A stretch of 64,000 nt of DNA. Source: a virus. The position numbers and the translations under genes are program-made. Of the stretch, positions 25,260 to 55,707 are shown in pieces (the first letter of the stretch is position 1; every line of letters starts with the position of its first letter). Location of the stretch: IMG/VR virus record IMGVR_UViG_3300031857_011362, positions 1 through 64,000 of that record, one strand, 5' to 3'. The notes below the pieces were generated by a model that did no database searches, was not told the origin of the DNA, and was given only the letters and a program-made list of their open reading frames with translations.

Positions 25260-27620
25260 ATGGCAAATTATAATTCATTAAAAAACGCGGGAATAGCAAA
25301 ACCTACAGGAAACATAAGTTTGGGTTCGGATTCTAGTAGATACACAGATATCTTTCTGAGCGGTAATGTTAATATTGCTGGTACTAGCTTGACCAGTACC
25401 AATGCTATTGCACCTAGAATAGCATCTATTGCTTATTTAGGTAATGATACAGCAGCCGATATTGCAGGCGGCACAACTGTTACATTAACTGGTAGTGGCT
25501 TTCAATCGGGCGCAGCAGTTTATGTAAGTGGTACTATAGCGTCATTGGTTGTCGTAGTAAGTTCAACTCAACTAACTTTTACTGCACCAGTAAAAGCTGC
25601 AGGAAATTATTCTCTTAGTGTAGTAAATTCAGACGGAGCAACTGCAACATTTATTCCAGGAATACAATATTCAGGTGTTCCAACTTGGTCTACTACTGCC
25701 GGTAGTTTAGCTACAGTATATGAAACATTCGCAATTAGCAACACCTTATCTGCTACTAGTGATAGCACAGTTACATACTCAGTAACATCTGGCTCACTAC
25801 CTGCAGGTGGTTCATTAAATTCATCTACTGGTGCACTAACTGGTACAGCATCTTCGGTTGGTTCTTCTACCACGTATAATTTCACAGTACGTGCAAGTGA
25901 TGGTGAAAATCAAGACACCGATAGAAATTTCAGTTATACAATCAATCCAGACGTAGTAACTTGGTCATCACCTGCAGCAGGTGCAACATTAACCGCTCAA
26001 ACAGGAATTGCATATACCCAAGCATTGAGCGCAACTAGTGCCGCAGGAAAATCTATCACATATTCAGCAAATGCATTGCCCGCTGGGCTAAGTATCAGTG
26101 GTTCAAGTATTACCGGAACGCCAAGTGCGGCGTCTTCTATTGCATCATTAATAACTGCAACGGCTGCAACCACAAATAAAACTGCAACTAGGACATTTAA
26201 TTGGAATATTCCTCTTGCACCTACTTATACCCTAACACCGGCATCTTCAAGTGTTAATGAAGGTTCAGCGTTGACATTTAATGTTGGTGGAACAAATATT
26301 ACCAATGGAACATATTACTGGTCGATTAATAATATCTCAACTGCGGCTGGTGATTTTTCAGCCAGTACTGGTTCATTTACAATAACTTCTAATGCCGGAT
26401 CATTTACAGTAACACCAACAGCCGATACAACAACTGAAGGAGTTCAAGCATTTACGGTGTCATTGAGAACTGGTAGTACTAGTGGTACCATAGTTGCCAC
26501 AAGTAGTACAGTAACAATTAATGATACTAGTGTGTCTCCGATTAATATTCTTTACTCTTGGGGATTTAATGAATATGGCCAGCAAGGCGTAGGTGATACT
26601 ACAAATAGATCTAGTCCAGTGCAGATTAGCAACACTACTACTTGGTCACAAATTTCTGCAGGTAATCTTAGTGGTCTGGCCATCAAAACAGATGGCACTA
26701 TGTGGTCATGGGGATATAATGGCAACGGCACCCTGGGTTTAGGTGACACTCTTCACCGATCCAGCCGAGTACAAATTGGAGCAGGTACTACATGGTCAAA
26801 AATTTCTGCAAATGGGGCTAGTAGCCTGGCCATCAAAACAGATGGTACGTTGTGGGCATGGGGCAAAAATGATAAAGGTCAACTAGGACAAGGTGATACC
26901 ACAAATAGATCCAGCCCAGTACAGATTGGTACACTAACTAATTGGTTAAGTATTTCTGCAGGTTATTATAGCTCTAGGGCCATCAAAACAGATGGTACGT
27001 TGTGGGCATGGGGTCGCGGCGACTTTGGGACGTTGGGTTTAGGAAATACTACAAATATATCCAGCCCAGTACAAATTGGTGCACTAACTAATTGGTCAAG
27101 CATTGCCATTGGCAATTATCACAACGTGGCCATCAAAACAGATGGTACGTTGTGGGCATGGGGACTTAATTCTTTTGGTGGCGCCGCATTACTTGGTTTA
27201 GGTAACGATACTATAAGTAGGTCTAGCCCAACACAGGTTGGGGCATTAACCAATTGGTCAACGCTTCCTGAAAATCTGAAAGGCACACACTGCGTGGCCA
27301 TCAAAACTGATGGTACGATGTGGTCATGGGGATATAATAACAATGGTCGATTGGGCCGAGATGGTACAGGTTCAAGTCCTCTGCAAATTGGTGAATTAAC
27401 TAATTGGTTAAATATTGCTGCAGGTTATGATTTCAACATTGCAGTCAAAACAGATGGTACCATATGGTCTTGGGGGCATAATAACCATGGTCAATTAGGT
27501 GTCACCACAGCCCTGCTTGCAGGCGAGCTTCGCCTGAATTATCCGGCACAAATTGGCGCATCAAACACTTGGTTAAGAGCTGCTGCTGGGCGCCAATTCG
27601 CATTAGCCGGGACAAGTTAA
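25260..27620 (+). CDS. IPT/Ig/Calx-beta-like stalk plus 7-blade RCC1 beta-propeller protein
   Basis: Seven WxWG..G.LG / KTDGT repeats preceded by Ig-like modules. Confidence 0.85.
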   Translation: MANYNSLKNAGIAKPTGNISLGSDSSRYTDIFLSGNVNIAGTSLTSTNAIAPRIASIAYLGNDTAADIAGGTTVTLTGSGFQSGAAVYVSGTIASLVVVVSSTQLTFTAPVKAAGNYSLSVVNSDGATATFIPGIQYSGVPTWSTTAGSLATVYETFAISNTLSATSDSTVTYSVTSGSLPAGGSLNSSTGALTGTASSVGSSTTYNFTVRASDGENQDTDRNFSYTINPDVVTWSSPAAGATLTAQTGIAYTQALSATSAAGKSITYSANALPAGLSISGSSITGTPSAASSIASLITATAATTNKTATRTFNWNIPLAPTYTLTPASSSVNEGSALTFNVGGTNITNGTYYWSINNISTAAGDFSASTGSFTITSNAGSFTVTPTADTTTEGVQAFTVSLRTGSTSGTIVATSSTVTINDTSVSPINILYSWGFNEYGQQGVGDTTNRSSPVQISNTTTWSQISAGNLSGLAIKTDGTMWSWGYNGNGTLGLGDTLHRSSRVQIGAGTTWSKISANGASSLAIKTDGTLWAWGKNDKGQLGQGDTTNRSSPVQIGTLTNWLSISAGYYSSRAIKTDGTLWAWGRGDFGTLGLGNTTNISSPVQIGALTNWSSIAIGNYHNVAIKTDGTLWAWGLNSFGGAALLGLGNDTISRSSPTQVGALTNWSTLPENLKGTHCVAIKTDGTMWSWGYNNNGRLGRDGTGSSPLQIGELTNWLNIAAGYDFNIAVKTDGTIWSWGHNNHGQLGVTTALLAGELRLNYPAQIGASNTWLRAAAGRQFALAGTS

Positions 27621-27632
27621 AAAATTAATAAA

Positions 27633-27845
27633 ATGAAATTTATAGGAATAACTATATTCGGCGGAGTCAACATTACATCTCCTCCTCCACCGCTTGGTAA
27701 TAAAGCTATATTTGGATATGGAAATAATGGATCAATAACATCAATAACTAACCTAGTATCAAACACCGGTGTTGTTTCTAGTAATATAACAGGGGTTGGT
27801 ACTGTAATGCGAATGCTCGCAGCCGCAGGATATTCATCAACTTAA
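27633..27845 (+). CDS. 70-aa protein with one KAIFGYG..TNLVSNTG..LAAAGY unit (possibly a collapsed repeat gene)
   Basis: The same unit occurs in 42277. Confidence 0.55.
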   Translation: MKFIGITIFGGVNITSPPPPLGNKAIFGYGNNGSITSITNLVSNTGVVSSNITGVGTVMRMLAAAGYSST

Positions 27846-27898
27846 CAATTTTATTAGATATACTTTGGAATTGCCTTAACGGGATGAATAGGTAATTT

Positions 27899-27910: not shown

Positions 27911-30418
27911 ATGGCACTAGAAAAAATAAGACCCAGAGTAGTAGATGCAACCGGTAATTACACCTTCAATAATGTAACTCTTACCGGTAACATTTCCTCA
28001 CCTACAGCAAACATAGGAAATGTTACCGGTGTAGACAATATAGTAGCTAGTAGTAGTAGTATTACAGTTACTGGTAGCTTATCAACAACTGCAAATATTA
28101 CTGCTGGTAACATAAAAACAAACAATTTACTGTATGCAAACGGTAGTCCATGGCAAATCGGAACTACAACTACAGTATCGGGCAGTAATTCACAAGTTCA
28201 GTTTAATGACTCTAGTAGCTTTGGCGCTAGCGCAAACTTTACATTTGATAAAACATCTAATACTCTTACTGTTACTAACTTAGTAACAAATGGTTCTGGA
28301 ATAACTAATATAACTGGTAGTAGTGTAACTGGACAAGTACCTAACGCACTAATAGCAGCTACTGTTTATACTAACAGTCAACCTAATATTACAAGTGTTG
28401 GTACACTATCTAGTTTAACTGTAACAGGTAGTATCAATAGTGGTAATGCTGACTTAGGCAATACTGCTACAGCTAATTACTTTGTTGGTAGTGGTAATAA
28501 TTTAAGTAATATTCAAGGTTCAAATATTACTGGTGCAGTATCGTATGCCACCACTGCTAATAGCGTATCTGGTTCTAATGTTTCCGGCGCAGTAACCTAT
28601 GCCGCTACAGCTAACGCAGTAGCAGGAGCTAACGTATTAGGTCAAGTTGCTAATAGTATAGTAGCTGGAACAATATATACAGCGGCACAACCAAATATTA
28701 CGTCAGTTGGTACATTAACTAGTTTGGCTGTAACAGGTAATATCACATCTGGTAATGCTAACTTAGGTAACTTAGTTACAGCTAATTTCTTTACTGGTAA
28801 CGGTAGTTTATTAAGTTCATTAACTTTTGGTAATATCACAACTTTCAGTACTGCCGGAATAACTACAGATGAATTATATCTACCTAGTACAACACGACTA
28901 AATGTCACTGCTAGTGGAGCGTCTGGATATTTATTTGACCAATATGGTGCCACATTAAATCCTGCAATATATGTTACTAGTGGTCAAACATTGGCATTTA
29001 ATTTGAATGTATCAGGACATCCATTTTTAATTCAAACAAGTGGTGGTGCAAATTACAGTACTGGCTTAGAACATGTTGATAGTACAGGAACAGTATTAAC
29101 TACTAGTTCAGCACAAGGACAAGTAGCAGGAACATTATATTGGAAAGTTCCATATGGCATAACAGGTAATTACAAATATATATGCTCTATTCATGGTGGG
29201 ATGAATGGCAATATCGTTATAACCGACGCAAATGTTGCGAACATAACTGTTGGATTGGCAACATATGCTACTACAGCTAATGCAGTAGCCGGAGCTAATG
29301 TTTCTGGTCAAGTAGGAAATGCATTAGTAGCTAGCACAGTTTATACTAATGCACAACCAAACATTACTAGTGTTGGTACATTAAGTAACTTAGCGGTTAC
29401 GGGTAATATAAGTGCAGGTAATGTATTAACTAACAACTTACTATATGCTAATGGTGTTGCATGGTCTTTTGGTGGCGGAGCATCTATTAGTAATGGTAAT
29501 AGTAATGTAAATATTGCAACATCAGGTGGCAATATAAACTTTAGTGCAGATGGTACTGCTAATGTAATGACTATTACTGGTACTGGAGCAAACATTAATG
29601 GATATGCAAATATCTCTGGTAATGTAAATGCAGGTAACGCTAACTTAGGTAATTTAGTTACTGCAAATTACTTTACCGGTGACGGTGGATTACTAAGTAA
29701 TATTGCCCCGTCTAGCTCATTAGTCAGTGGGAACAGCAATGTTAAAGTTAGTACAAGCAGTGATATTTCATTCAGTATGAACGGTACATCCAATGTGGTT
29801 GTTCTTACTTCATTGGGTGCAAACATAAACGGTTATGCAAACATCACTGGTAATGTTACTTTTGGTAATTTAATAGTGTCTACATACGCAAACTTAGGAT
29901 CAGTAAGCGGTCTTACTATTACCGGTGGTAGCAACAATTATGTGTTACAGACTAATGGTAATGGTGCACTAAGTTGGGCGCCTCTTGGTGCATTAGTCAC
30001 ATTAGATACTTTTTCAGGTAACGGAGTTCAAACAACCTTCACTCTGTCTACAACACCGGCAACAATAAACCATACAATTATAAATATTAACGGTGTCCAA
30101 CAGTTTAAGAATTCATACAGCTTGACGGGTAACAGCGTAATCTTCTCAGAAGCTCCCCCAAATACAAGCTATATTGAAATCACCACTTTTGCACAGCGTC
30201 CTACTGTAGCAGGTTATATTAATAGAAAATACATCGGAAATGGATCTGCTAATACATACACGGTAACTGCTGGTTGCGGGGAAAATGATGTGTTAGTATT
30301 TCTGAATGGATTATGTCAAATGCCAGTTGATGGATACACAATAAGTGGAAGTAGTTTAACTTTCTCTTTCGCAATCTCAGCTGGTACCGAAATACAGATT
30401 AGAGAGTTACCTAGATGA
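27911..30418 (+). CDS. Fibre/baseplate-like protein with a cupredoxin-like domain
   Basis: GHPF...CSIHGGM; ANVSG repeats; two C-terminal F(S/T)GNG modules. Confidence 0.75.
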   Translation: MALEKIRPRVVDATGNYTFNNVTLTGNISSPTANIGNVTGVDNIVASSSSITVTGSLSTTANITAGNIKTNNLLYANGSPWQIGTTTTVSGSNSQVQFNDSSSFGASANFTFDKTSNTLTVTNLVTNGSGITNITGSSVTGQVPNALIAATVYTNSQPNITSVGTLSSLTVTGSINSGNADLGNTATANYFVGSGNNLSNIQGSNITGAVSYATTANSVSGSNVSGAVTYAATANAVAGANVLGQVANSIVAGTIYTAAQPNITSVGTLTSLAVTGNITSGNANLGNLVTANFFTGNGSLLSSLTFGNITTFSTAGITTDELYLPSTTRLNVTASGASGYLFDQYGATLNPAIYVTSGQTLAFNLNVSGHPFLIQTSGGANYSTGLEHVDSTGTVLTTSSAQGQVAGTLYWKVPYGITGNYKYICSIHGGMNGNIVITDANVANITVGLATYATTANAVAGANVSGQVGNALVASTVYTNAQPNITSVGTLSNLAVTGNISAGNVLTNNLLYANGVAWSFGGGASISNGNSNVNIATSGGNINFSADGTANVMTITGTGANINGYANISGNVNAGNANLGNLVTANYFTGDGGLLSNIAPSSSLVSGNSNVKVSTSSDISFSMNGTSNVVVLTSLGANINGYANITGNVTFGNLIVSTYANLGSVSGLTITGGSNNYVLQTNGNGALSWAPLGALVTLDTFSGNGVQTTFTLSTTPATINHTIININGVQQFKNSYSLTGNSVIFSEAPPNTSYIEITTFAQRPTVAGYINRKYIGNGSANTYTVTAGCGENDVLVFLNGLCQMPVDGYTISGSSLTFSFAISAGTEIQIRELPR

Positions 30419-32988
30419 GTCAAACAAAAATAGATATTTCAAACTTATCAGATGCTGTAATTGCAGCATTGTCTGTGCCAAAAATTACCTCGATAACATA
30501 TCCAGGAGATGATACTGCTGCAAACCCAACTGGCGGGCAAGAGATCATTCTTACTGGTTCAGGATTTGGTACTGGTGCAATTGTACATGTTGCAGGTGTT
30601 CCTGTATCAGTATCATCAGTGGTAAATAATAATACTCTCTCTTTCACTAGTCCAGCTAAATCTACTGGTACATATTCATTGGCAGTCATTAACACAGACG
30701 GTGGAATTGCTACTTCTATTTCTAACATAGAATATTCCGGTGTACCAGCTTGGTCAACCCCTGCGGGCACACTAGGTACATTATATGAAGCATCATCCAT
30801 TAATGCACAATTAACCGCAACTAGTGACAGCACAGTAACATATGCAGTCACTGCAGGGGTTTTACCCACCGGTGGTTCATTAAATTCATCTACTGGTGCA
30901 CTGACTGGTACAGCATCTTTGGTTGGTTCTTCAACTACTTATAGTTTTACAATAGATGCGGTTGATGCAGAACAACAGGACACTAGCAGAAATTTCAGTT
31001 TTACAGTCAATCCAGACGTAGTTACTTGGTCATCACCTGCTGAAGGTGCAACATTGACTGGCACTCAAGACACTGCATTTAGTCAAGAATTGAGTGCAAC
31101 TAGTGCAGCAGGTAGGACAATTTCATATTCCGCAAATGCATTACCGTCTGGATTAAGCATCAGTGGATCAACCATTACCGGAACACCTACTGTAGGTTAT
31201 TCTAGTTCATCACTAATAACTGCGACAGCCGCAACTACAGGTAGAACTGCAACTAGAACATTTGTTTGGAATATTGCTTCACTTGCACCTACTTACACCA
31301 TAACACCGGCATCTTCAAGTGTTAATGAGGGTTCAGCATTGACATTTAATGTTGGTGGAACAAATATTACCAATGGAACATATTACTGGTCAATTAATAA
31401 TACCACTACTGCGGCTGGTGATTTTTCTGGCTCAGTAACTTCTGGTTCATTTACAATAACCTCTAATGCTGGTTCATTTACTGTAACAGCAACGGCTGAT
31501 GCAACAACAGAAGGAGCAGAAACATTTACGGTGTCATTGAGAACTGGTAGTACCAGTGGTACCATAGTTGCAACAAGTAGTACTGTAACTATTAATGATA
31601 CTAGTTTAACACCTACTTACACCATAACACCGGCATCTTCAAGTGTTAATGAAGGTACATCATTGACATTTACTGCAGGTGGAACAAATATTACCAATGG
31701 AACATATTACTGGTCAATTAATAATATCTCAACTGCGGCTGGTGATTTTTCAGCTAGTACTGGTTCATTTACAATAACATCAAATGCTGGTTCATTTAAT
31801 GTAACAGCAACGGCTGATGTAACAACAGAAGGTGCTCAAACATTTACAGTGTCATTGAGAACTGGTAGTGTTAGTGGTACCATAGTTGCAACAAGTAGCA
31901 CTGTAACTATTAATGATACTAGTTTGACTCTTTGGTCACCAATATCTGGTAAATTATTCACATGGGGCAGGAATGACTATGGCCAAATGGGTATCGGTGT
32001 TACTGGTGGAGGACTCTCTCCTACTCAAGTCGGTGCATTATCTACCTGGGTAAAAATTGACGGCGGCAATACAAGAACTGCAGGATTCAAAAATGATGGT
32101 ACTATGTGGACCTGGGGAACTTATGCCGATCAGGTTAGCGGATCATGGATTGATAGATCATCTCCCGTCCAAGTTGGTACAGAAACTAATTGGCGCGATA
32201 TGGCAGCAGGGACGTTTCACACCCTAGGAGTAAAAGACACCGGTACATTATGGGGCTGGGGAGTGCAGCAGCAAGGAGAAATTGTCAATCCAGGGCAATT
32301 CCCCTTACCTCAGCAGATAGGTACATTAACTAATTGGTCATCAGTTGGCGCCGCGTCATATTCATCGGCAGCTATCAAGACAGATGGTACACTGTGGACC
32401 TGGGGACAGAATGATTTTGGACAATTGGGATTAGGAACCACAATAAATATTTCAAGTCCTCAGCAAGTTGGTGCATTAACTAATTGGTATCAGGTTAGTG
32501 TGGGCAGTTCGAAATATATGATGGCTCTCAAGACAAATGGTACACTTTGGGCATGGGGTAACGGTGCTTGGGGCCAACTGGGCCTAGGTAGCGGAACCAA
32601 CGTTACTAGCCCGGTACAAATTGGTGCATTAACTAATTGGTCAAGTATTTCCGCCGGCGGATACACCTCAGCAGCAATCAACACGTCCAACGCATTGTGG
32701 GTCTGGGGAATTAACAACTATGGGGGGTTAGGACAAGGTGACACTATTAGCCGCTCTAGTCCTGTACAAGTTGGAACTGATTATTCTAAAGTTGCTGCAA
32801 ACTTTTCTCGCATAGCAGCTATTAAAACGAACGGTACTCTATGGGCTTGGGGTATCGGAGACAATGGCGGCGGCGGCGTGGGAGATGGTACTTCTTTAAA
32901 TAGATTTAGTCCAACTCAGATTGGTGCACTAACTACCTGGCTAAATGTATATTCACCAGAGAACACCAATGGGGCAATTAGGTCCTAA
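30415..32988 (+). CDS. IPT/Ig/2x Calx-beta-like stalk plus 7-blade RCC1 protein
   Basis: Seven WxWG repeats; tandem duplicated NEGS..TINDTS module; ATGA overlap. Confidence 0.85.
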   Translation: MSQTKIDISNLSDAVIAALSVPKITSITYPGDDTAANPTGGQEIILTGSGFGTGAIVHVAGVPVSVSSVVNNNTLSFTSPAKSTGTYSLAVINTDGGIATSISNIEYSGVPAWSTPAGTLGTLYEASSINAQLTATSDSTVTYAVTAGVLPTGGSLNSSTGALTGTASLVGSSTTYSFTIDAVDAEQQDTSRNFSFTVNPDVVTWSSPAEGATLTGTQDTAFSQELSATSAAGRTISYSANALPSGLSISGSTITGTPTVGYSSSSLITATAATTGRTATRTFVWNIASLAPTYTITPASSSVNEGSALTFNVGGTNITNGTYYWSINNTTTAAGDFSGSVTSGSFTITSNAGSFTVTATADATTEGAETFTVSLRTGSTSGTIVATSSTVTINDTSLTPTYTITPASSSVNEGTSLTFTAGGTNITNGTYYWSINNISTAAGDFSASTGSFTITSNAGSFNVTATADVTTEGAQTFTVSLRTGSVSGTIVATSSTVTINDTSLTLWSPISGKLFTWGRNDYGQMGIGVTGGGLSPTQVGALSTWVKIDGGNTRTAGFKNDGTMWTWGTYADQVSGSWIDRSSPVQVGTETNWRDMAAGTFHTLGVKDTGTLWGWGVQQQGEIVNPGQFPLPQQIGTLTNWSSVGAASYSSAAIKTDGTLWTWGQNDFGQLGLGTTINISSPQQVGALTNWYQVSVGSSKYMMALKTNGTLWAWGNGAWGQLGLGSGTNVTSPVQIGALTNWSSISAGGYTSAAINTSNALWVWGINNYGGLGQGDTISRSSPVQVGTDYSKVAANFSRIAAIKTNGTLWAWGIGDNGGGGVGDGTSLNRFSPTQIGALTTWLNVYSPENTNGAIRS

Positions 32989-33041: not shown

Positions 33042-35195
33042 ATGGCCATTACTAGACTCCCCGGTTTCATTATAGACAGTACAACTTCGTTTACGTTTGC
33101 AAATGTAAGTGTGACGAGTAATGTCACGGCTAGTAATGCTAATTTAGGAAACGCAGCAACCGCAAACTTCTTTATAGGTAACGGTAGTCTATTGACAGGT
33201 ATCATTGCATCTGGTGGTACAGCAACTAAAACAGCAAATGGTACAAGTAACGTAGATATTACAACTGCTAATGGCAACATTACAATGGGTGTTGGTGGAA
33301 CCGGTAATGTAGTTATTGTAACTACCACTGGTGTTAATGTTGCAGGTACATTAAATGCGACTGGTAATCTAACAGCCGCTAATGCTAACTTGGGTAATCT
33401 AGTAATAGCTAATTTCTTTGCCGGTAATGGTAGTTCATTAACATCTATCACTGGTGCTAACGTAACAGGCGGAGTTAGTTTTGCGGCAACTGCAAATGCA
33501 GTAGCTGGTGCTAATGTCTCAGGTGCAGTAGCATATGCAACAACTGCTAACGCAGTAGCCGGCGCTAATGTCTCTGGACAAGTAGCTAATGCATTGGTCG
33601 CTGGTACTGTATATACTGCGGCCCAGCCAAATATCACCAGTGTTGGTACATTAACTAGTTTGGCTGTAACAGGTAATATCACATCTGGTAATGCTAACTT
33701 AGGTAACTTAGTTACAGCTAATTTCTTTACTGGTAACGGTAGTTTATTAAGTTCATTAACTTTTGGTAATATCACAACTTTCAGTACTGCCGGAATAACT
33801 ACAGATGAATTATATCTACCTAGTACAACACGGCTAAATGTCACTGCTAGTGGATCAAGTGGATATCTATTTGACCAACACGGCGCTACAATAAATCCTG
33901 CAATATATGTTACTAGTGGTCAAACATTGGCATTTAACTTAAATGTATCTGGTCATCCATTTTTAATTCAAACAAGTGGTGGTGCAAACTATAATGTTGG
34001 TTTAGAACATGTTGATAGTACAGGAACAGTATTAACTACTAGTTCAGCACAAGGACAAGTAGCAGGAACATTATACTGGAAGATACCGTATGGCATAACA
34101 GGTAATTACAAATATATATGCTCTATTCATGGTGGGATGAATGGTAATATTGTTGTAACCGACGCAAATGTTGCGAACATAACTGTTGGATTGGCAACAT
34201 ATGCTACTACAGCTAATGCAGTAGCAGGAGCTAATGTCTCTGGTCAAGTAGGCAATGCATTAATCGCAGACACAGTTTATACTGCGGCTCAACCTAATAT
34301 TACAAGTGTCGGCACATTAACAAGTTTAGCCGTTACTGGTAATATCACATCTGGCAACGCTAATTTAGGTAATGCAGTCACTGCTAATTACTTTATTGGT
34401 GACGGTAGTATGTTGACTGGTATTACTGGTGGTGGCGGTGGTGGCGGCACCCCCGGCGGGGCAAACACTTATATTCAGTTCAATGACGGTAGTGTTTTTG
34501 CAGGTAATGCAGGTTTAACTTTTAATAAAACAAATACTGTTCTTACTGCAAATAATTTAGTAGTAACGGCGACCACTAACTTAGGAGCTGTTAGTAACAT
34601 TACAGTTACTGGCGGCGTGGGTGGTCAAGTACTTGGTACTAATGGTAGCAATATTCTGTCTTGGATTACTCCAGCAACAACTTCAATCACATCGACAACT
34701 GGTATTACGGTTGATACATTTACAGGTGATGGTTCAACTGTAGTGTTCCCTTTAAGTGTTACCCCAGCAACTATTACGCAAACTCAAGTTAACTATAACG
34801 GTGTGTTGCAATTGCGTTCTGCATATACACTGACTGGTTCGACTATTATATTCTCAACTGCGCCAATAAGTGGGTCATTAATTGAAATCACAACGACACA
34901 GGGAGTTAGTGCAACTTCGGGTTCATACGGAGTGCGTTCATACACTGGTACAGGTTCACTAACTACATTTACAGTAACAAATGGCTCAACTACTAGTAGT
35001 GTGCTTGTTACAGAAAACGGAGTATTACAAACCCCAACAACTGATTACACGGTATCAGGTACTGTACTAACCTTCACTACAGCACCGGCTAATGGGGTGT
35101 CAATACAAATTAGAGAGCTTGGTATTTTCGTAGTAAATACCACATCACCTACAACGACTGACATATTAAGTCCGTTCTTATTGATGGGAGCTTAA
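33042..35195 (+). CDS. Fibre/baseplate-like protein with a cupredoxin-like domain
   Basis: Mosaic of 21939-like and 27911-like segments; GHPF...CSIHGGM. Confidence 0.75.
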   Translation: MAITRLPGFIIDSTTSFTFANVSVTSNVTASNANLGNAATANFFIGNGSLLTGIIASGGTATKTANGTSNVDITTANGNITMGVGGTGNVVIVTTTGVNVAGTLNATGNLTAANANLGNLVIANFFAGNGSSLTSITGANVTGGVSFAATANAVAGANVSGAVAYATTANAVAGANVSGQVANALVAGTVYTAAQPNITSVGTLTSLAVTGNITSGNANLGNLVTANFFTGNGSLLSSLTFGNITTFSTAGITTDELYLPSTTRLNVTASGSSGYLFDQHGATINPAIYVTSGQTLAFNLNVSGHPFLIQTSGGANYNVGLEHVDSTGTVLTTSSAQGQVAGTLYWKIPYGITGNYKYICSIHGGMNGNIVVTDANVANITVGLATYATTANAVAGANVSGQVGNALIADTVYTAAQPNITSVGTLTSLAVTGNITSGNANLGNAVTANYFIGDGSMLTGITGGGGGGGTPGGANTYIQFNDGSVFAGNAGLTFNKTNTVLTANNLVVTATTNLGAVSNITVTGGVGGQVLGTNGSNILSWITPATTSITSTTGITVDTFTGDGSTVVFPLSVTPATITQTQVNYNGVLQLRSAYTLTGSTIIFSTAPISGSLIEITTTQGVSATSGSYGVRSYTGTGSLTTFTVTNGSTTSSVLVTENGVLQTPTTDYTVSGTVLTFTTAPANGVSIQIRELGIFVVNTTSPTTTDILSPFLLMGA

Positions 35196-37573: not shown

Positions 37574-37643
37574 TTGCCAGGCCAGATCTGGAAACCTCGA
37601 CAACTGCACTACTAGTACAAAATTAATAAATACATCATGGCAA
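37571..37643 (+). repeat. Duplicated intergenic/promoter segment, copy 1
   Basis: 67/73 nt identical to 39585-39657; contains AATAAATA-N4-ATG. Confidence 0.9.
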
Positions 37644-44549: not shown

Positions 44550-44933
44550 ATGGCATTAACACAAATACTCAGCTCCAGCGTATCAAACATAGCATCCATT
44601 ATCTTGAACGACATTTCTAGTCAGTTTGACGGGGCGAAATCTGTGTTTCCATTGATGTTAGATCAAACAAGCATAAATACTATTATTGATAGTAAAGATT
44701 TAGAAGTAGTGGTCAATGGACAAAGGTTAGCTCCGTACGTGACTACTTATACGTATCCATGGTTAACACCATATGATTCATTCAAAGGATTCAAAGTTAG
44801 TGGTAGCAATCTTATAATTTACAATGCGCCTTATATTGGCGACACTGCATTTTTAAAGTTGACACCCGTGTCTGCAACTAAGCAGACGAGAAGGTACCCG
44901 TTTTCAGCAACAACAATTGTATTAGGAGATTAA
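44550..44933 (+). CDS. Putative virion structural protein
   Basis: 127 aa; ISSQFDG..SVFPL start resembles the FTGNG module; structural gene context. Confidence 0.6.
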   Translation: MALTQILSSSVSNIASIILNDISSQFDGAKSVFPLMLDQTSINTIIDSKDLEVVVNGQRLAPYVTTYTYPWLTPYDSFKGFKVSGSNLIIYNAPYIGDTAFLKLTPVSATKQTRRYPFSATTIVLGD

Positions 44934-44937
44934 TTAA

Positions 44938-47847: not shown

Positions 47848-48732
47848 ATGTCAAGTAGAAATAGCTTACAACATACTGTGTCAGCGGTTGAACCCGTTGG
47901 CGCGGCCTTGGGTGACGAATGGTATAACTCCACTACCAACTTACTGTACAAACGTATGGTGGTTGGTGGCGTACCCCAATGGGCCACTATCACTGCTGGC
48001 GCCTCTTCGTCAACTAGTTCTGTAGTTGTTCCTACTAATATCTCAGAAAAAGTCAACAGGACTATTACTAATCAGACTAGCTACACTGTAACCAGCGCTT
48101 TGGCCGCGGCACTGACATTGCCTGTCACACCGGGCTATATGTACATCATACACTCAATTTATGTAACTAATGTTGATACAGCTTACGCTACTACCACTAC
48201 GGTCAGCGGCACTATAGCATATGCAACTCCCGTATCTACTGTGTCTTTTGCTAACAAGATACCAATTCCAGCAAGAGGCGCATTAGAACTACTACGCAAG
48301 CCGCAGTTGTTAAATCCCGGTGATGTAATTAATATACAGTCATTGGCTGCTGGCGTAGGCGCAAATAATTTGCTACAAGTTACTATAACATACGAACAAG
48401 TTCCTGCTGATGCCAACTACTTTGGTGTTGGTGTAAGTACTGCTGCTACAGTAGGCGATGTATATGTTGTGCCTGCAACTAGTGTTGCTGCTGTGATTGA
48501 CAGCATTAGAGTAGTAAATAGTAGTGACGTGGGTGATATTGCAATAACACTAACTTGGACTAATGCAACTAATTCGGTATTAGGAACACTGACTAGTAGT
48601 TTTATCGTACCAGCAAATTCTACTGTAGAATTATGTGAAACTGCCAAGCGTATTCCAACTGGAAATAAGATAAGAGCTGTGGCCACTACTGCATCAGCAA
48701 TAAGTGTTTTTGTATCTGGTAGGACACAGTAA
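47848..48732 (+). CDS. Putative virion structural protein with two internal repeats
   Basis: Two similar domains (IHSIYVTN / IDSIRVVN ... IPARGALEL / VPANSTVEL), loosely like domain A. Confidence 0.6.
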
Positions 48733-49874
48733 TGCCCGGTGGGATTTTTAGCCTGACTCAGGTTACCGAGCAACAAATAGACGGTACTTGGCCTACTCAA
48801 TGGTATTCCCCTGGATTATATAGTTGGGGTAATAATGGATATGGTCGATTGGGTTTAGGTGATACTACAGCTAGATCTAGTCCTAACCAAACTAGTTCTT
48901 TGACGCCTTGGTCAAGTATTTCTGCAGGTAGATTTCACAACCTAGCAATTAAAACCGATGGTACCATGTGGTCATGGGGGTTAAATCAATATAGTTGGTT
49001 TGGAATTCTTGGTTTAGGTGATACTACAGATAGATCCAGCCCAGTACAAATTGGTGCATTAACTACTTGGTTAAGTATTTCTGCCGGTGCCGGCAGTTAT
49101 CACAACCTGGCCATCAAAACAGATGGTACCATGTGGACATGGGGTAGAAATCATTATGGGCAATTAGGTCAAGGCAATACTACAGATAGATCCAGCCCAG
49201 TACAAATAGGTGCATTAACTACTTGGTCAAAAATTTCTGCCGGCGGTTATCACAGCATGGTCATCAAAACCGATGGTACACTGTGGTCATGGGGTAGGAA
49301 TGGCTCTGGTAATTTGGGTTTAGGTGATACTACAGATAGATCCAGCCCAGTACAAATTGGTGCATTAACTACTTGGTCAAAAATTTCTGCAGGTAGTCAC
49401 AGCACAGCCATCAAAACCGATGGTACACTGTGGTCATGGGGATATAATGGTTGGGGTGGTTTAGGTTTAGGTGATCTAACAAATAGATCCAGTCCAGTAC
49501 AAATAGGTGCATTAACTAATTGGTTAAGTGTTTCTGCCAGCTACAATCAGACGTGCATAGCAATTAAAACAGATGGTACACTATGGTCATGGGGATATAA
49601 TGCTCAAGGGCAATTAGGTTTAGGAAATACTACATCTAGAAATAGTCCAGTACAGATTGGAGCATTAACTACTTGGTTAAATGTTTCTGCCGGTAGCTAT
49701 CTCGGCTTGGCCGTTAAAACCGATGGTACCATGTGGACATGGGGCCAAAATAATAATGGGGAATTAGGTCAAGGCAATACTACAGATAGATCCAGCCCAG
49801 TACAGGTTGGTGCATTAACTACTTGGGAAAAAATTGCTGCAGGATCTAGGCACAGCCTAGCCACCAAGAATTAA
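48732..49874 (+). CDS. 7-blade RCC1 protein with an N-terminal GxWP motif
   Basis: Seven WxWG repeats; TAATG overlap. Confidence 0.88.
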
Positions 49875-49893: not shown

Positions 49894-50268
49894 ATGCCAT
49901 TTACTTTTTCAGGCTTAAATTTCGTCGGCGACGTTAGCGCGCAAGCAGTCTTTGCTCCTACTCCAGAATATTACCTTTGGTCATGGGGTCGCAATAGTTA
50001 TGGTAATTTAGGTTTAGGTGATACTACAAATAAATCCAGTCCAGTACAGATTGGTGCATTAACCACATGGTCAAATATTTCTGCAGGTAATGCTAACAGT
50101 GCAGCCATTAAAACAAATGGTACACTGTGGGTCTGGGGAATTGGCAACTTTGGGGGGTTAGGACAAGGTAACACTATTAGCCGCTCTAGTCCTGTACAAA
50201 TTGGCGCATTAACTACTTGGTCAAATATTTCTGCAGCCAACAATCACATCCTTGCCATCTTTAATTAA
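49894..50268 (+). CDS. Two-blade RCC1 protein (collapsed, possibly a pseudogene)
   Basis: Only two WxWG repeats, but a normal HILAI C-terminus is retained. Confidence 0.7.
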   Translation: MPFTFSGLNFVGDVSAQAVFAPTPEYYLWSWGRNSYGNLGLGDTTNKSSPVQIGALTTWSNISAGNANSAAIKTNGTLWVWGIGNFGGLGQGNTISRSSPVQIGALTTWSNISAANNHILAIFN

Positions 50269-50308: not shown

Positions 50309-50334
50309 ATCAAGCATCACAGTAAATACTTGAT
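50309..50334. promoter_or_regulatory. Dyad ATCAAGCAT-N8-ATACTTGAT overlapping AGTAAATA and the start codon
   Basis: One mismatch between arms; a second, perfect copy is at 55819. Confidence 0.6.
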
Positions 50335-52105
50335 GCAAAAAACACTTCACTTCTTATCAGGCATTCCCCGTTCGGGTTCAACGGTACTTGCTGCAATTTT
50401 AAATCAAAACCCACTTACTCATGTCAGTACAACTTCTGGGTTAGTTCATGCATTAGACGGACTAGCCAACACTTGGCACAGTGCTGGACTACTTAATGAA
50501 ACAGACGCTGACCGCTCTAAACTAGCTGCTACAATGCGAGGCACTATTGACGCATTTTATAGTGATATTGACAAACCAGTTATCATTGACAAATCACGAG
50601 GATGGCCTATTGCTCAAATCATGCAAGCAATGGCACAGGTACTACAACATGCACCCCGCATCATTGCTACTGTGCGCTCAGTACCTGACTGTGCTGCAAG
50701 TTTTATTCGTGTTGCAAAGCCCACTGACTTAGATGACTTTATGCAATCAGGGCAACTAATGGATCATTTACGGGCGGCATATATCTCATTGCAAAACGGG
50801 TATAACTTTGCACCCGAATGCTTCTTGTTTGTAGAGTATGAAGACTTAGTGCGTGACCCTAAAACAGAACTTGCAAGAGTACATGCTTTCTTGGGATTGC
50901 CTGACTTTGAATATGACTTTAACAACATCGACGGTTCCACTGTGTCTGAAGATGACGAGAACTTGCACGGACATGCAGGTATGCATGATGTTAAACCCGT
51001 GCTAGAGCGTCAACACAATCAAGACCCAAGAGAACTACTGAAGCACCACTATGCTACATTCTGTCAAGGTGAGTTCTGGTTAGAGCGGCCGCGCACTGTA
51101 CCCGAGATACATGATTTGGATTTGCAATTGGCAGCAAGCACAATTGGTGACTTCGTTGAAGGATGGAGATTAGCACAAAAGTTAGAAACAGAAGAACCTA
51201 ATAATCATCGTGCAGCATACAATCGTGGTTGGTACTTGCTACATCAAAGACAGATACAAAAAGGTTATCAGCTAATGAATCGCGGTAGATTGTCTAGTGT
51301 TTTTGGTGATGCAAGACCAAATGTACCTACCCCAGAATGGGATGGCAAGAGCAAGGGTATTGTGTTGTTATGCTTGGAAGGTGGACTGGGCGATCAGATT
51401 CATCAAATTCGTTATGCAAAGAACATTGCAGACCGTGGATGTAAAGTTATCGTAGCATGTTCGGGCCCACTAGCATCGCTATTCTTCAATGCAGAAGGTG
51501 TCTCTAGTGTGATTCAACATGAAGCAGTGTTTGGTATCTATCACGACTTTTGGGTTGCTGGCATGAGTGCAGTTGTGCCACTGGGCTTTGAGTTAGAAGA
51601 TATAAGTGGCAAGCCTTATCTAGCCAAGCCTAATGTAATCAAGGGTCATAAGAAACGAATCGGTCTACGCTGGCAGGGCAACAGCAAGTTTGAGCATGAG
51701 CATCACAAAAAGTTCCCCTTCTACTTGATGTTTGACGCAGTGAAAGATGCTGATGTTGAGTTTATCAGCTTGCAACGTGATGAAGGTGCAGAAGCATGTC
51801 CTTACTGGGTCAAGCAAGTTCCGTTAAACTCTTGGGAAGATACCCGTGCCGCAGTTGCCAGTTGTGATTTAGTTATCAGTTCTTGCACTTCAGTCAGTCA
51901 TTTGGCAGGAGCAATGGGAGTCGATACTTGGGTAGTTACCCCAATCATGCCCTACTTTTTGTATGCATTGCCCGGCGAGAAAACTCCCTATTATGACAGC
52001 TTTACTCTGTTCAGACAGGAATCTTTCGGAGACTGGACAGCACCGTTTGTCAAAATGAAAGAACGCTTGTCTATTACCAATCCCAAGCTAAAACTTGTGG
52101 GGTAA
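50333..52105 (+). CDS. Sulfotransferase-TPR-glycosyltransferase (GT9-like) fusion
   Basis: GIPRSGST (5'-PSB), DKSRGW and R..DCAAS; TPR-like AAYNRGWYLL; GGLGDQI, IGLRWQG and CDLVISSCTSVSHLAGAMG. ATG at 50333 (the track start is TTG at 50330). Confidence 0.85.
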   Translation: MQKTLHFLSGIPRSGSTVLAAILNQNPLTHVSTTSGLVHALDGLANTWHSAGLLNETDADRSKLAATMRGTIDAFYSDIDKPVIIDKSRGWPIAQIMQAMAQVLQHAPRIIATVRSVPDCAASFIRVAKPTDLDDFMQSGQLMDHLRAAYISLQNGYNFAPECFLFVEYEDLVRDPKTELARVHAFLGLPDFEYDFNNIDGSTVSEDDENLHGHAGMHDVKPVLERQHNQDPRELLKHHYATFCQGEFWLERPRTVPEIHDLDLQLAASTIGDFVEGWRLAQKLETEEPNNHRAAYNRGWYLLHQRQIQKGYQLMNRGRLSSVFGDARPNVPTPEWDGKSKGIVLLCLEGGLGDQIHQIRYAKNIADRGCKVIVACSGPLASLFFNAEGVSSVIQHEAVFGIYHDFWVAGMSAVVPLGFELEDISGKPYLAKPNVIKGHKKRIGLRWQGNSKFEHEHHKKFPFYLMFDAVKDADVEFISLQRDEGAEACPYWVKQVPLNSWEDTRAAVASCDLVISSCTSVSHLAGAMGVDTWVVTPIMPYFLYALPGEKTPYYDSFTLFRQESFGDWTAPFVKMKERLSITNPKLKLVG

Positions 52106-52122
52106 ATTACCAAACATATGTT

Positions 52123-52130
52123 GATAAATA
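52123..52130 (+). promoter_or_regulatory. Late promoter-like GATAAATA
   Basis: Followed by CTGT-ATG of an 11-codon uORF, then 52163. Confidence 0.55.
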
Positions 52131-52162
52131 CTGTATGAAGAATTTATCAACGGAATATTATT

Positions 52163-53341
52163 ATGGCTGAAACAAATACAAAAGGCGTACTGACAGTAGG
52201 AGAAGTTTACGAACGGCAGACTGCTGGAGTGTGGCCAACTGAGCGGCATAATAATTATGTTAATCTGGCGATACGTACAGCTGGCCTTGCCACCAACGGC
52301 CAGCTTGGTAATGATAGTCGTATTGGACGCAGTAGCCCGGTACAAGTTGGTGAGCACGCCGACTGGAGTACTACCTCTGGTGGCACATACTTCACTACTG
52401 CAATCAAAACAAATGGAACACTATGGGCATGGGGATTTAATAATGTTGGCCAGCTAGGATTAGGTGATGCTGGTATTGGTATTAACAGATCCAGCCCAGT
52501 ACAAGTTGGTGCATTAACTAATTGGTCAAAGATTAGTGGAGGTGATGCGCACATTGCGGCCATCAAAACAGGCGGAACATTGTGGACATGGGGAAGCAAT
52601 ACAAATGGCGGCCTTGGCTTGGGTGACACTACTAGTAGATCCAGTCCGGTGCAAGTCGGTGCATTGACTACTTGGAAACAAGTAAGTGTATCTTTTTATA
52701 ATCATTTATATGCTGTTAAAACAGACGGCACCCTATGGAGCTGTGGAAATAACAGCTTCGGCCAGCTAGGACTAGGTGATACTCTTAGCCGATCCAGCCC
52801 GGTGCAAGTCGGAACATTAACTACCTGGAGTACTGTAGCTGCCTGCGGTTACCACGGAATTATGGTAAAGACAGATGGTACCCTTTGGACCTGCGGCTAC
52901 AATTTTCAAGGTCGGCTCGGCCTAGGTGATACTCTTAGCCGATCCAGCCCAGTGCAAGTTGGCTTATTAACTAATTGGAAATCTGCCACAGCATCGTTGA
53001 GCAGTAGCACTACACTTAAAACAGATGGTACTATTTGGGCTTGGGGCAGTAACAGCAATGGCCAGCTAGGACTAGGTGATACTCTTAGCCGATCCAGCCC
53101 AGTGCAAGTCGGCGCATTAACTACTTGGAAATCTATTGCTGCAGGTGGCGGAGGTCATGTAAGCGCAACTAGAATAACTACTGATACTCTATGGAACTGG
53201 GGAAATAACAACTATGGTCAACTAGGCTTAGGTGACACTGTTAGCCGATCTAGTCCGGTTCAAGTAAGTTCAATCACGCTTCGGACGATCTCAATTGGCG
53301 AACCGTCTGGATATTATCACATGTTAGCAATCATCGAATAA
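52163..53341 (+). CDS. 7-blade RCC1 protein with an N-terminal GxWP motif
   Basis: Seven repeats, the first divergent. Confidence 0.88.
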   Translation: MAETNTKGVLTVGEVYERQTAGVWPTERHNNYVNLAIRTAGLATNGQLGNDSRIGRSSPVQVGEHADWSTTSGGTYFTTAIKTNGTLWAWGFNNVGQLGLGDAGIGINRSSPVQVGALTNWSKISGGDAHIAAIKTGGTLWTWGSNTNGGLGLGDTTSRSSPVQVGALTTWKQVSVSFYNHLYAVKTDGTLWSCGNNSFGQLGLGDTLSRSSPVQVGTLTTWSTVAACGYHGIMVKTDGTLWTCGYNFQGRLGLGDTLSRSSPVQVGLLTNWKSATASLSSSTTLKTDGTIWAWGSNSNGQLGLGDTLSRSSPVQVGALTTWKSIAAGGGGHVSATRITTDTLWNWGNNNYGQLGLGDTVSRSSPVQVSSITLRTISIGEPSGYYHMLAIIE

Positions 53342-53407: not shown

Positions 53408-53794
53408 ATGGCACTATTCGTACAAGTAATCAACGGTGAAGTCAAACAAGTCTGGGACTCTACTCCACCAGCCGGCGAAGCAGGCTGGGCAGATGCAGTA
53501 GAAGTTCGTTCACCTATTCAACCCGGGCGTCAGGGCTACCTAGCACATCGTTTTGATTTGACAACTACACCAATTCAAATCATCTGGGATACATATGATA
53601 TTTCGGTTGAGGATCGCAAAAATGACATGTCTGCTAATGCAGGTTTCGTGTTCCAGCAAGTTCTACAAGAACAAGCCCGCGATCCAGCATCTTACAATGC
53701 AGAGCAAGTTGAAGCAGCAAGAGAAGTAATGGTTGCTAAACAAGCGGCAATTGCAGCAACTACTACACATGACGAGCTAGACGCACTGGTTTGA
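53408..53794 (+). CDS. Hypothetical protein (fibre-associated/chaperone-like by context)
   Basis: 128 aa with a good SD; no family recognised. Confidence 0.6.
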   Translation: MALFVQVINGEVKQVWDSTPPAGEAGWADAVEVRSPIQPGRQGYLAHRFDLTTTPIQIIWDTYDISVEDRKNDMSANAGFVFQQVLQEQARDPASYNAEQVEAAREVMVAKQAAIAATTTHDELDALV

Positions 53795-54573
53795 TGATTT
53801 ATTTCTTAAGTGGCTTGCCACGATCGGGTTCAACATTGTTAGGCTCAATATTGAATCAAAATCCAGATGTTTATGTTTCACCAACAAGTCCTTTATTGGA
53901 CTTGTTGTGCCTACAGAATGAAGCATTAAACCGTGTCAAAGAGCAGTATACATTTGATGAAGATAAACAATCTGAATCAATTTACAAAGCATTGCCCCAG
54001 GCTTTCTATCAGCATATAAACAAACCACATATCATTGACAAGCACAGAGCTTGGGCAAGAAATGTGTTGCCAGCACAAATGCATATCAATAGTGACCCCA
54101 AAGTCATTTGCACATATCGTCCTGTTGCTGAAGTTGTAGTTAGTTTTTTAAAACTAATCAACAAAGACCCCAACAACTTTGTTGACGCTGAGTTACGAAA
54201 AAAAAGCATTGCTATTACTACCGAGAATCGTGCTAGAGAGTTATGGGAAGGCTATATCAGTGACCCGTGGCAAAGTATACAGATAGGATTGCAAAACTAT
54301 AAAAATAACTTATATTTTGTGTCATATGATGATTTAGTCAATAAACCTGAGACCACTATTGCAAGTGTATATAACTTTCTCGGTATTGATCAATACCAGC
54401 ATGTGTTTGATAGTATCAGCAATAGTTGCGGTGAATCAAAAGACGCAGCATGGGGACTCAAAGACCTACATACAATTAGACCTAAGCTAGCTAAGACTAG
54501 TGATGATCCTGTAACTGTGTTAGGTGAGAATTTGTGTAAATACTTTAATCAATTTGATATTAAACGAGTATAA
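53794..54573 (+). CDS. PAPS-dependent sulfotransferase
   Basis: GLPRSGSTLL, DKHRAW and YRP..EVVVS; TGATG overlap; paralogous to the N-terminus of 50333. Confidence 0.85.
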   Translation: MIYFLSGLPRSGSTLLGSILNQNPDVYVSPTSPLLDLLCLQNEALNRVKEQYTFDEDKQSESIYKALPQAFYQHINKPHIIDKHRAWARNVLPAQMHINSDPKVICTYRPVAEVVVSFLKLINKDPNNFVDAELRKKSIAITTENRARELWEGYISDPWQSIQIGLQNYKNNLYFVSYDDLVNKPETTIASVYNFLGIDQYQHVFDSISNSCGESKDAAWGLKDLHTIRPKLAKTSDDPVTVLGENLCKYFNQFDIKRV

Positions 54574-54576
54574 CAC

Positions 54577-55707
54577 ATGACTAACAAGACCGCCCTGACA
54601 TTAACTCAAGCATACAATAAGCAATTAAGCGGCACTTGGCCTACTCAATGGTATATACCCATTGGATTATATAGTTGGGGATTTAATGGTAATGGTAACT
54701 TAGGTTTAGGCAATACTACAAATTATTCTAGTCCAAAACAGATTGGTGCATTAACTACTTGGTCAAAAATTGCTGCAGGTTATGATCACAACATAGCCGT
54801 AAAAACAGATGGTACGATGTGGTCATGGGGGCAAAATTTCTATGGCGCCTTGGGTTTAGGTAATACTACAAATAGATCTAGTCCAGTACAGGTTGGTGCA
54901 TTAACCACTTGGTCAAGTATTGTTGCCAACAGTTTTAATGGCAGCATAGCTATTAAAACAGATGGTACTATATGGTCTTGGGGTTACAATAATAATGGTG
55001 AATTAGGTTTAGGCAATACTACAGATAGATCCAGCCCAGTACAAATTGGAGCATTAAGTACTTGGTCAAGTATTTCTGGAGGTAGATTTCGCAGCCATGC
55101 AATTAAAACAGATGGTACACTGTGGTCATGGGGATCTAATAACCATGGTCGCTTGGGGTTAGGTAATACTACAAATTATTCTAGTCCAAAACAAATAGGT
55201 GCATTAACTACTTGGTTAAGTATTTCTGCAGGTAATTATCATAGCATAGCCATCAAAACCGATGGTACACTGTGGACGTGGGGGCAAAATAGCTATGGCC
55301 AATTAGGTCAAGGTGATACTACATCTAGATCCAGTCCAGTACAGATTGGTGCATTAACTACTTGGTTAAAGATTGCTGGAGGTATTTATCACAGCATGGC
55401 CATTAAAACAGATGGTACACTATGGACATGGGGCCAAAACAGTCATGGTCAATTAGGTTTAAGTGATACTATACGTAGATCCAGCCCAGTACAAATTGGT
55501 GCATTGACTAATTGGTTAAATATTGCTGCTGCATATCACAGCATGGCCATTAAAACAGATGGTACCATGTGGTCATGGGGATTGAATCAAGATGGCCAGC
55601 TTGGGGTAGGAGATACTACAGCTAAATCTAGTCCAGTACAAGTTGGTGCATTAACTAATTGGTTAAATGTTTCTGCAGGTAATAATCACAGCCTGGCCAT
55701 CGGTTAA
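54577..55707 (+). CDS. 7-blade RCC1 protein with an N-terminal GxWP motif
   Basis: Seven WxWG repeats; GTWPTQWY is shared with 48732. Confidence 0.88.
   Translation: MTNKTALTLTQAYNKQLSGTWPTQWYIPIGLYSWGFNGNGNLGLGNTTNYSSPKQIGALTTWSKIAAGYDHNIAVKTDGTMWSWGQNFYGALGLGNTTNRSSPVQVGALTTWSSIVANSFNGSIAIKTDGTIWSWGYNNNGELGLGNTTDRSSPVQIGALSTWSSISGGRFRSHAIKTDGTLWSWGSNNHGRLGLGNTTNYSSPKQIGALTTWLSISAGNYHSIAIKTDGTLWTWGQNSYGQLGQGDTTSRSSPVQIGALTTWLKIAGGIYHSMAIKTDGTLWTWGQNSHGQLGLSDTIRRSSPVQIGALTNWLNIAAAYHSMAIKTDGTMWSWGLNQDGQLGVGDTTAKSSPVQVGALTNWLNVSAGNNHSLAIG

Follow-up and report, generated by a model that had tools for sequence, protein, structure and literature searches.

The window analysed here comprises the first 64 kb (64,000 nucleotides) of the 124,442-bp viral record IMGVR_UViG_3300031857_011362, and between positions 25,260 and 55,707 it carries nine genes for RCC1-type beta-propeller proteins. 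The question raised by this locus is whether these genes form a library of binders which the virus actively diversifies, as was proposed in an earlier reading made from the sequence alone (the sequence-only reading) by analogy with antibodies and variable lymphocyte receptors (VLRs), or a repertoire which is fixed and evolves slowly. The analysis favours the second answer. The region from 21.9 to 55.7 kb would be an expanded host-adhesion island holding a fixed repertoire of exchangeable propeller heads shaped by non-programmed evolution, a reading which is given a probability of about 0.6.

The RCC1 gene set

The source virus is an uncultured freshwater jumbo myovirus and the window is its structural arm. 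CheckV puts the completeness of the record at 35%, which for 124,442 bp implies a full genome of ~350 kb. Pfam searches identified RCC1 or RCC1-like (RLD) domains in nine + strand open reading frames (ORFs), all of them above the gathering threshold (PF00415 / PF25390 RLD) and with PF00415 scores of 77-297 bits against a cut-off of 21.7. The genome-wide scan gave 56 PF00415 matches, all within 26550-55701, and anchoring on the WxWG motif resolved 58 blades, eight genes having seven apiece and the ORF at 49894-50268 two. The count of nine genes and 58 blades, with exactly seven in eight of the genes, thus agrees with that of the sequence-only reading. The genes, numbered g1 to g9 along the strand, are as follows:

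25260-27620, + strand: g1, 786 amino acids (aa); TIG and He_PIG stalk, neck module and C-terminal seven-blade RCC1 propeller
30415-32988, + strand: g2, 857 aa; TIG/He_PIG/Ig stalk, tandemly duplicated neck module and divergent seven-blade propeller
35909-37573, + strand: g3, 554 aa; TIG stalk and seven-blade propeller, with a g4-like mosaic tract in blade 2
37637-39583, + strand: g4, 648 aa; N-module, Ig-like stalk and seven-blade propeller
42546-44285, + strand: g5, 579 aa; stalk, neck module (42901-43220) and seven-blade propeller
48732-49874, + strand: g6, 380 aa; stand-alone seven-blade propeller with a short N-terminal motif
49894-50268, + strand: g7, 124 aa; two blades, with a mosaic tract common to its blade 2 and blade 6 of g2
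52163-53341, + strand: g8, 392 aa; stand-alone propeller with a degenerate first blade
54577-55707, + strand: g9, 376 aa; stand-alone seven-blade propeller, the gene modelled with AlphaFold2 (AF2)

With two blades, which cannot close a propeller alone, g7 is probably a remnant. The stand-alone propellers open with a short conserved motif (roughly W/L-T-L-x-Q ... G-x-W-P), present at 48732-48820, 52163-52250 and 54577-54670, which may be a docking peptide. The same motif, modelled as a low-confidence helix, precedes propellers in unrelated viral contigs (L001, L005, L015, L018). Megablast of 35909-44285 gave zero matches to cultured phages. The term RCC1 also occurs in papers on a prasinovirus, RcGTA and rumen phages, where it is the name of a strain or locus, and these were set aside.

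Constant framework and variable loops

Column entropy across the blades peaks at 3.6, 3.3 and 2.9 bits in the positions following WxWG and at 3.5 and 2.9 bits following SAG, compared with 0-1 bit in the framework. The high-entropy columns are rich in Tyr (19%), Asn (15%) and Ser (12%), and aromatic residues make up 30% of them against 11% overall. Distinct strings are found in 55 of the 58 blades for the first loop and in 57 for the second, with indels in a few blades. The blade-to-blade variation after WxWG and ISAG, which had been described from the sequence alone, is borne out by these values.

The claim that frameworks are also common to blades at the nucleotide level, within and between genes, holds with one qualification. 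An exact 45-mer does recur at 36713, 38588, 38885 and 39185, with three of the four copies located in g4, whose blades 1-5 are the most alike; three further copies have 1-3 mismatches each, and none of 100 shuffles of the window gave a match. The sharing is strong only in a core of ~70 nucleotides (nt) within the blades of g4, g5, g6, g7 and g9, and weak in the other four genes. Blade-to-blade identity is 61-67% in g4, g5, g6 and g9.

The metagenomic relatives of g9 number at least 7,995 proteins (E < 1e-20, 50-65% identity), and other large viral records have 21-42 blades apiece. The consensus of the metagenomic relatives has its constant and variable positions where the blades of the window have them, and the combination of constant framework and variable loops is therefore a trait of the family rather than a peculiarity of this genome.

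Fold of the propeller and face of the loops

The sole gene modelled was g9. Using a 60-sequence alignment, AF2 gave a model with a predicted local distance difference test (pLDDT) score of 93.6, possessing seven blades behind a low-confidence N-terminal helix; the single-sequence version reached a pLDDT of only 37. The best structural match of the model is UVR8, with a template modelling (TM) score of 0.85 and a root-mean-square deviation of 1.5 Å, the RLDs of HERC1/2 also being among the best, with TM scores of 0.85-0.88 for UVR8 and these RLDs. UVR8 is also the best match by sequence among solved structures (E 5e-53), human RCC1 being weaker (E 5e-31).

When g9 is aligned with UVR8, the residue after WxWG falls on W94, W250 and W302, and the two that follow SAG coincide with the W-R of the GWRHT motif, all of which are located at the UVR8 dimer interface (PMC4501546). 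As the variable positions align with interface residues, we infer by homology that both loops of every blade share one face of the propeller. No BLIP-II or other beta-lactamase inhibitor was among the 32 PDB sequences matched at E <= 1e-5 with phmmer, and the proposal that the propellers might inhibit host surface enzymes in the manner of such inhibitors accordingly found no support.

Exchange between blades and concerted evolution

In the nucleotide comparison of single blades, 39 of the 58 have their nearest neighbour in another gene, and just five of these 39 share its blade number, so that blades from different genes do intermix as had been predicted. Mosaic tracts of 60-120 nt were identified, some of which take the first loop along. 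Blade 6 of g2 and blade 2 of g7 agree at 67 of 71 positions inside such a tract and at 32 of 61 outside it, the corresponding figures for blade 2 of g3 and blade 4 of g4 being 88 of 93 and 28 of 57. Among 1484 inter-gene blade pairs, 43 exceed all of 20,000 null simulations. The recombination tests are positive in part: the pairwise homoplasy index (PHI) test is significant for the younger blades (p = 0.002) and not for all 58, where sites are saturated.

Silent sites were compared as synonymous codon differences at codons for the same residue, with the core defined as Leu12-Ser34. Between genomes, silent differences amount to 0.61-0.63 for the core and 0.62 for the periphery. The five genes g4, g5, g6, g7 and g9 differ among themselves by 0.19-0.23 and 0.42-0.45, respectively (column-wise Mann-Whitney, p = 0.003), and in-genome values are equal for same-gene and different-gene pairs. 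Codon-level constraint is excluded by this contrast between within-genome and between-genome comparisons. What it shows is homogenisation, inside the genome, of a ~70-nt core in every 150-nt unit, superimposed on an expansion within this genome that is itself fairly recent. The genes g1, g2, g3 and g8 take part weakly (ratio 0.73-0.78). Together with the mosaic tracts, a core which is homogenised only in within-genome comparisons supports that part of the sequence-only reading in which blades exchange DNA by recombination or gene conversion. As a clean contrast of within-genome and between-genome silent sites, the approach is a reusable demonstration of concerted evolution in repeat proteins.

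The same tendency is present in other loci, for example L018. This locus, in a 146-kb viral record (G002), has 42 RCC1 repeats in three open frames of ~740 aa, each apparently a double propeller, and its blades are nearly identical at silent sites (core 0.04, periphery 0.09), indicating very recent amplification.

The ratio of non-synonymous to synonymous substitution rates (dN/dS) is ~0.3 for the framework. For loop columns defined a priori, the most similar pairs gave dN 0.84 and a saturated dS of 1.10, a ratio of 0.76 in which the selection of pairs is biased. Measured against framework dS, the loop ratio is 3.6, a value also expected from core-limited conversion alone. Nei-Gojobori (NG86) estimates of dN/dS on loop columns chosen by entropy were dropped as circular.

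A course of events consistent with these data would begin with duplications of blades and genes within the genome, through which the family grew. Gene conversion, as homologous recombination over short tracts, would then keep the ~70-nt core uniform within and between genes, with the loop-bearing flanks staying diverged, and an occasional 60-120-nt tract would shift a loop from one gene to another.

Tests for programmed diversification

Several of these features would also suit an actively diversifying library of the antibody, VLR or pilS kind, in which the core and flank DNA would be the recombination substrate, new loop combinations would arise at high frequency during infection and g7 would be a silent partial cassette. 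Such a library agrees with the core and flank architecture and the homogenisation between genes, with the mosaic tracts carrying a loop from gene to gene, and with the tract which the two-blade fragment g7 shares with g2. The machinery expected of one was sought in the 124-kb record, that is in ~35% of the genome, where no reverse transcriptase (PF00078, E <= 1) and no serine or tyrosine recombinase (PF00239, PF00589) was matched. The best candidate template has 44% of its mismatches at A, in a sequence with 29% A, and inverted repeats are limited to four weak pairs with 73-79% complementarity. A diversity-generating retroelement (DGR) was rejected on the lack of a reverse transcriptase in the record and of adenine bias. 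An invertase or shufflon was rejected as well, there being no recombinase in the record, no meaningful inverted repeats and a single strand for all of the genes. The earlier statement that the window holds no dedicated reverse transcriptase or invertase is extended by these searches to the 124-kb record. Constancy of blade number, with exactly seven kept in eight genes, is a further point against active reshuffling.

Public metagenomes give a view of the locus over time. Twenty runs from lakes or other fresh waters, belonging to 15 studies (2017-2025), contain 77-90% of the 31-mers of the region. In four of the studies, contigs show 0-1 differences from the window along the pieces listed (0.7-3.7 kb), which lie both inside and between RCC1 genes; contig-level data hide rare variants, low-frequency mosaics included, and the parts of the island lacking long contig cover say nothing either way. 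Four of the runs with 77-90% of the 31-mers (X1, X3, X15 and X20) are labelled "fungus metagenome", a label which may hide a freshwater source. Run X2, from a lake in 2025, has a variant contig with ~20 substitutions over 51248-52201 (the end of a sulfotransferase fusion gene and the start of g8), where the other three runs are exact. Over eight years the phage has been both frequent and stable in metagenomes of lakes, and a search for its host and receptors could therefore succeed.

With no diversity generator found in the 124-kb record, a loop pattern common to at least 7,995 relatives and 0-1 differences across four studies from 2017 to 2025, the antibody- or VLR-like library is not upheld, and its active form is considered very improbable. 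A related proposal takes the homogenised core (~70 nt) and diverged flanks (~80 nt, bearing both loops) as an evolved recombination scaffold, on which in-register conversion among the 58 blades, with g7 as silent donor, would yield new combinations of loops at a rate sufficient to shift host range within phage populations. This is regarded as quite improbable; if true, it would be a retroelement-free diversification system of the VLR/pilS type in a virus.

It also has to be asked whether the repeats are real. Repeated blades could have been mis-joined in assembly, which would make the gene number, the blade order or the common segments chimeric. In the Logan collection, short-read contigs do end where blades are repeated, and certain short unitigs connect blades from different genes. 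Against this, exact repeats in the RCC1 parts reach at most 64 nt, which is below ordinary read length and spanned by ordinary reads; the nine ORFs are all open, eight of them with exactly seven blades; and the unique flanks agree with 0-1 differences in four independent studies. An assembly artefact is on this balance hardly credible. The unitig joints were not used as evidence of mosaicism, as their sides are at most 40 nt and probably represent repeats or other phages.

Stalks, necks and the probable exchange of heads

The preferred reading, of a fixed repertoire of exchangeable heads, draws on the modules which accompany the propellers and on the following genes between them:

35206-35826, + strand: N-module (~107 aa) and TIG piece, 62% aa identical to residues 1-208 of g4
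39651-39980, + strand: stand-alone copy of the N-module, 109 aa, whose stop overlaps the start of the next gene
39980-41941, + strand: paralogue with a glycine-rich head; He_PIG stalk and neck of the g1/g2/g5 type and a C-terminal Gly_rich_2 domain (Pfam) in place of a propeller
44550-47832, + strand: two conserved virion structural genes of 127 aa and 964 aa (44938-47832); phrog_5838, E 1e-258
47848-48732, + strand: 294-aa protein, conserved in sister phages over its first ~45 residues only

TIG, He_PIG or Ig domains precede the propeller in g1-g5 (Pfam). Stalk and neck of g1, g2 and g5 are 85-91% identical at the nucleotide level to 39980-41941 (g1: 656 nt at 89%), the g1 stalk being 68% identical in aa, and the neck duplication of g2 pairs 31286-31607 with 31610-31925 at 91% nt identity. 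The N-module falls in a family of viral proteins of ~109 aa, a member of which is annotated as virion structural, and the gene at 35206-35826 appears to be the separate upstream piece of a g4-like fibre of which g3 is the remainder (a split g4). Counterparts of 47848-48732 in sister phages have differing bodies of 152-850 aa, and this protein likewise looks to be a fibre-like anchor with a variable body.

In four lake metagenomes the neck and stalk modules (40529-41188, 41849-43828) occur at 10-20x the contig depth of neighbouring genes, and in three runs contigs part from the window at the neck-propeller junction of g5 (43220). Taken together, these two features indicate that other members of the community join the neck to other heads. 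The modules are common to many other phages of the community and have the appearance of recombination junctions. Variant letters and loose ends are also numerous at 42361, 42498 and 43220.

In at least 599 related viral contigs the 127-aa and 964-aa genes serve as the anchor of the island, the 964-aa protein (44938-47832) having at least 599 relatives in IMG/VR. In 80 loci kept from these, RCC1 genes lie within 10 kb in three. The closest sister phages (76-82% in the 964-aa anchor gene) have no more of this region in common with the window than the anchor gene, the small gene preceding it and the initial ~45 residues of 47848-48732, and their flanks carry paralogous proteins of ~380-400 aa with ConA-like lectin, CBM_4_9 or glycine-rich domains. 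With such proteins in the flanks of the sister phages, the RCC1 propellers fill the genomic niche of lectin and carbohydrate-binding heads.

A conserved N-terminal anchor or stalk followed by an exchangeable C-terminal head, which is the architecture of fibres and receptor-binding proteins, is thus found here, and it points to the propellers being interchangeable heads for putative host binding. The seven-bladed propellers would most likely be the distal ligand-binding heads of virion appendages, five of them on Ig-like stalks, three standing alone behind the short N-terminal motif and one reduced to a two-blade remnant. The two variable Tyr/Asn/Ser-rich loops of each blade would form one composite binding surface per propeller, with a host surface glycan as the probable ligand. 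Whole heads would be swapped among phages at conserved neck or anchor modules, and the fixed repertoire itself would undergo slow germ-line evolution.

Gene neighbourhood and virion context

All large ORFs of the window are on the + strand. The major head (capsid) protein shares 65-67% identity with its counterparts in Vibrio phage 2.275.O and the Rak2/121Q-like jumbo coliphages. It lies 5′ of the RCC1 region along with a prohead protease and baseplate-wedge-like and fibre-like proteins (PHROGs), and the RCC1 region forms the end of the structural arm. Beyond 55707, on the 3′ side, are a methyltransferase, a minor coat-like protein, a kinase, a 2OG-Fe oxygenase-like protein and a ribonucleotide reductase. 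The remaining genes that bear on the propellers are:

21939-25244, 27911-30418 and 33042-35195, + strand: three paralogous fibre proteins (phrog_677, tail-fibre PHROGs), interleaved with g1 and g2
50330-52105, + strand: sulfotransferase domain protein, 591 aa, with a ~390-aa C-terminal extension lacking a Pfam match
53791-54573, + strand: sulfotransferase, 260 aa, 45% identical to an enzyme of phage S-SRM01 which also directly follows an RCC1 gene

Two of the fibre paralogues (27911-30418 and 33042-35195) match over 860 nt at 90% identity. Within this match is a 191-nt exact repeat (28706-28896 and 33642-33832), which is the longest of the island and the one with the highest risk of short-read mis-assembly. 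Flanked by the prohead protease on one side and the following gene of the head module on the other is a homing-endonuclease-like ORF (1467-2063, phrog_314). The two sulfotransferase genes interleave with the stand-alone propeller genes. Freshwater Synechococcus phages have the closest cultured homologues (45-49%), and in S-SRM01 three RCC1-type genes adjoin a tail-fibre gene and a sulfotransferase. The S-SRM01 region also has a glycosyltransferase and a nucleotide-sugar epimerase.

The fibre block, the Ig-like stalks, the head swaps and the RCC1 proteins in virions of distant relatives form a context in which the binders of the sequence-only reading can well be virion-displayed. The same context would fit general "stickiness" decorations in place of primary receptor binders, with propellers tipping hair- or whisker-like appendages on the capsid or sheath, as in phAPEC6 and CBB, and holding the virion to polysaccharide matrices, particles and non-host surfaces. 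In its favour, Ig-like domains are strung together in the stalks as they are in Hoc-type decorations, hairy appendages and RCC1-containing virions are known from relatives, and the N-module represents a family of small stand-alone viral proteins. This is nevertheless thought rather unlikely, as the genes interleave with baseplate-connector-like and tail-fibre-like paralogues, and in sister phages lectin and CBM genes beside the conserved fibre anchor replace them, which is typical of host-range determinants and still compatible with decorations.

Possible roles outside the virion

The propellers could alternatively be non-virion proteins acting in or on the infected cell, as DNA-condensing or inner-body proteins or as partners of the neighbouring sulfotransferases. 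Relatives are annotated as "DNA condensation protein". The jumbo phage phAPEC6 has eleven RCC1-like proteins, and its virion proteome includes six "DNA condensation" proteins of ~30-42 kDa, for which a role in DNA condensation or as inner-body proteins was suggested (PMC7247149). GAP32 gp1 is a virion protein, and 121Q (121Q_234-248) and PBECO4 carry arrays of RCC1-like genes (PMC5259590). In the present phage, the genes g6-g9 are stalkless and stand among modifying enzymes, and the adjacency of RCC1 and sulfotransferase genes recurs in S-SRM01. This explanation is improbable given that five of the nine propellers are fused to extracellular-type Ig-like domains, that heads are exchanged with glycine-rich and lectin domains, and that the closest solved relatives are generic protein-binding propellers. 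The chromatin role of RCC1 relies on eukaryotic Ran and nucleosomes, which counts against such a role, and bacteria are not known to possess Ran.

A number of points weigh against the host-adhesion island. Binding and virion location are in the case of this phage deduced from sequence and genomic context, and the placing of the loops on one face depends on the UVR8 alignment and not on model coordinates. Over half the length of g9, the RCC1 proteins of phAPEC6 and 121Q reach only ~30% identity to it, which makes the transfer of virion location from them weak. With g6-g9 lying among sulfotransferases and followed by the methyltransferase, kinase and oxygenase, these four could have a non-structural role. 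Loop dN/dS against its own silent sites is not above 1, and diversifying selection is not demonstrated; the PHI result for the full blade set belongs here too. Lastly, with short-read contigs breaking at repeated blades, the blade order in g4, g6, g8 and g9 lacks independent confirmation.

Comparison with known systems

Arabidopsis UVR8, the closest solved structure, resembles the phage propellers in being a very regular seven-blade propeller whose interface residues align with their variable positions. The phage propellers are without the tryptophan triad of the GWRHT motifs, however, and a photoreceptor role is not implied.

The repeat-level behaviour has a parallel in the HNWD (het-d/het-e) WD40 proteins of Podospora anserina, where propeller repeats evolve in concert within and between paralogous loci and a few positions of the interaction face are hypervariable (PMC1805685). 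They belong to another propeller superfamily, serve fungal allorecognition and have variable repeat number, population polymorphism and demonstrated positive selection (PMC1805685). In the phage set, by contrast, seven blades are fixed in eight genes, contigs of four studies lack polymorphism and positive selection is not demonstrated. The blade identities of 61-67% in g4, g5, g6 and g9 also recall repetitive RCC1/BLIP-II propellers amplified from single blades (PMC9218822), the amplification here being in-genome and seen at other viral loci such as L018. That survey concerns mostly bacterial proteins and the origin of single propellers, whereas the present case is a nine-gene set in a phage fibre module.

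Arsenals of several receptor-binding proteins (RBPs) are known from the multiple depolymerases of the Klebsiella jumbo phage K64-1 and from T4-type exchange of fibre tips. The island shares with these multi-RBP arsenals the conserved N-terminal anchors or necks, the interchangeable C-terminal heads and the many paralogues in one jumbo phage. It differs in having RCC1 propellers for heads, in place of beta-helix depolymerases or fibre tips, and no enzymatic domain was detected in them.

The nearest counterparts are the arrays of phAPEC6, 121Q, PBECO4 and GAP32, Rak2-like phages of a related lineage with multiple paralogous seven-blade RCC1-type proteins of ~40 kDa per genome, several of which mass spectrometry has detected in virions. 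Annotations and discussions of those phages treat the proteins as DNA-condensation proteins, whereas here five are on Ig-like stalks in a fibre block and their heads are exchangeable with glycine-rich and lectin domains. The database name "chromosome/DNA condensation" is at odds with a context suggestive of host-binding heads, and this context would relabel a family of at least 7,995 close metagenomic relatives. Rather than being a new kind of diversity generator, the family joins a published kind, namely the RCC1 arrays of the Rak2-like jumbo phages.

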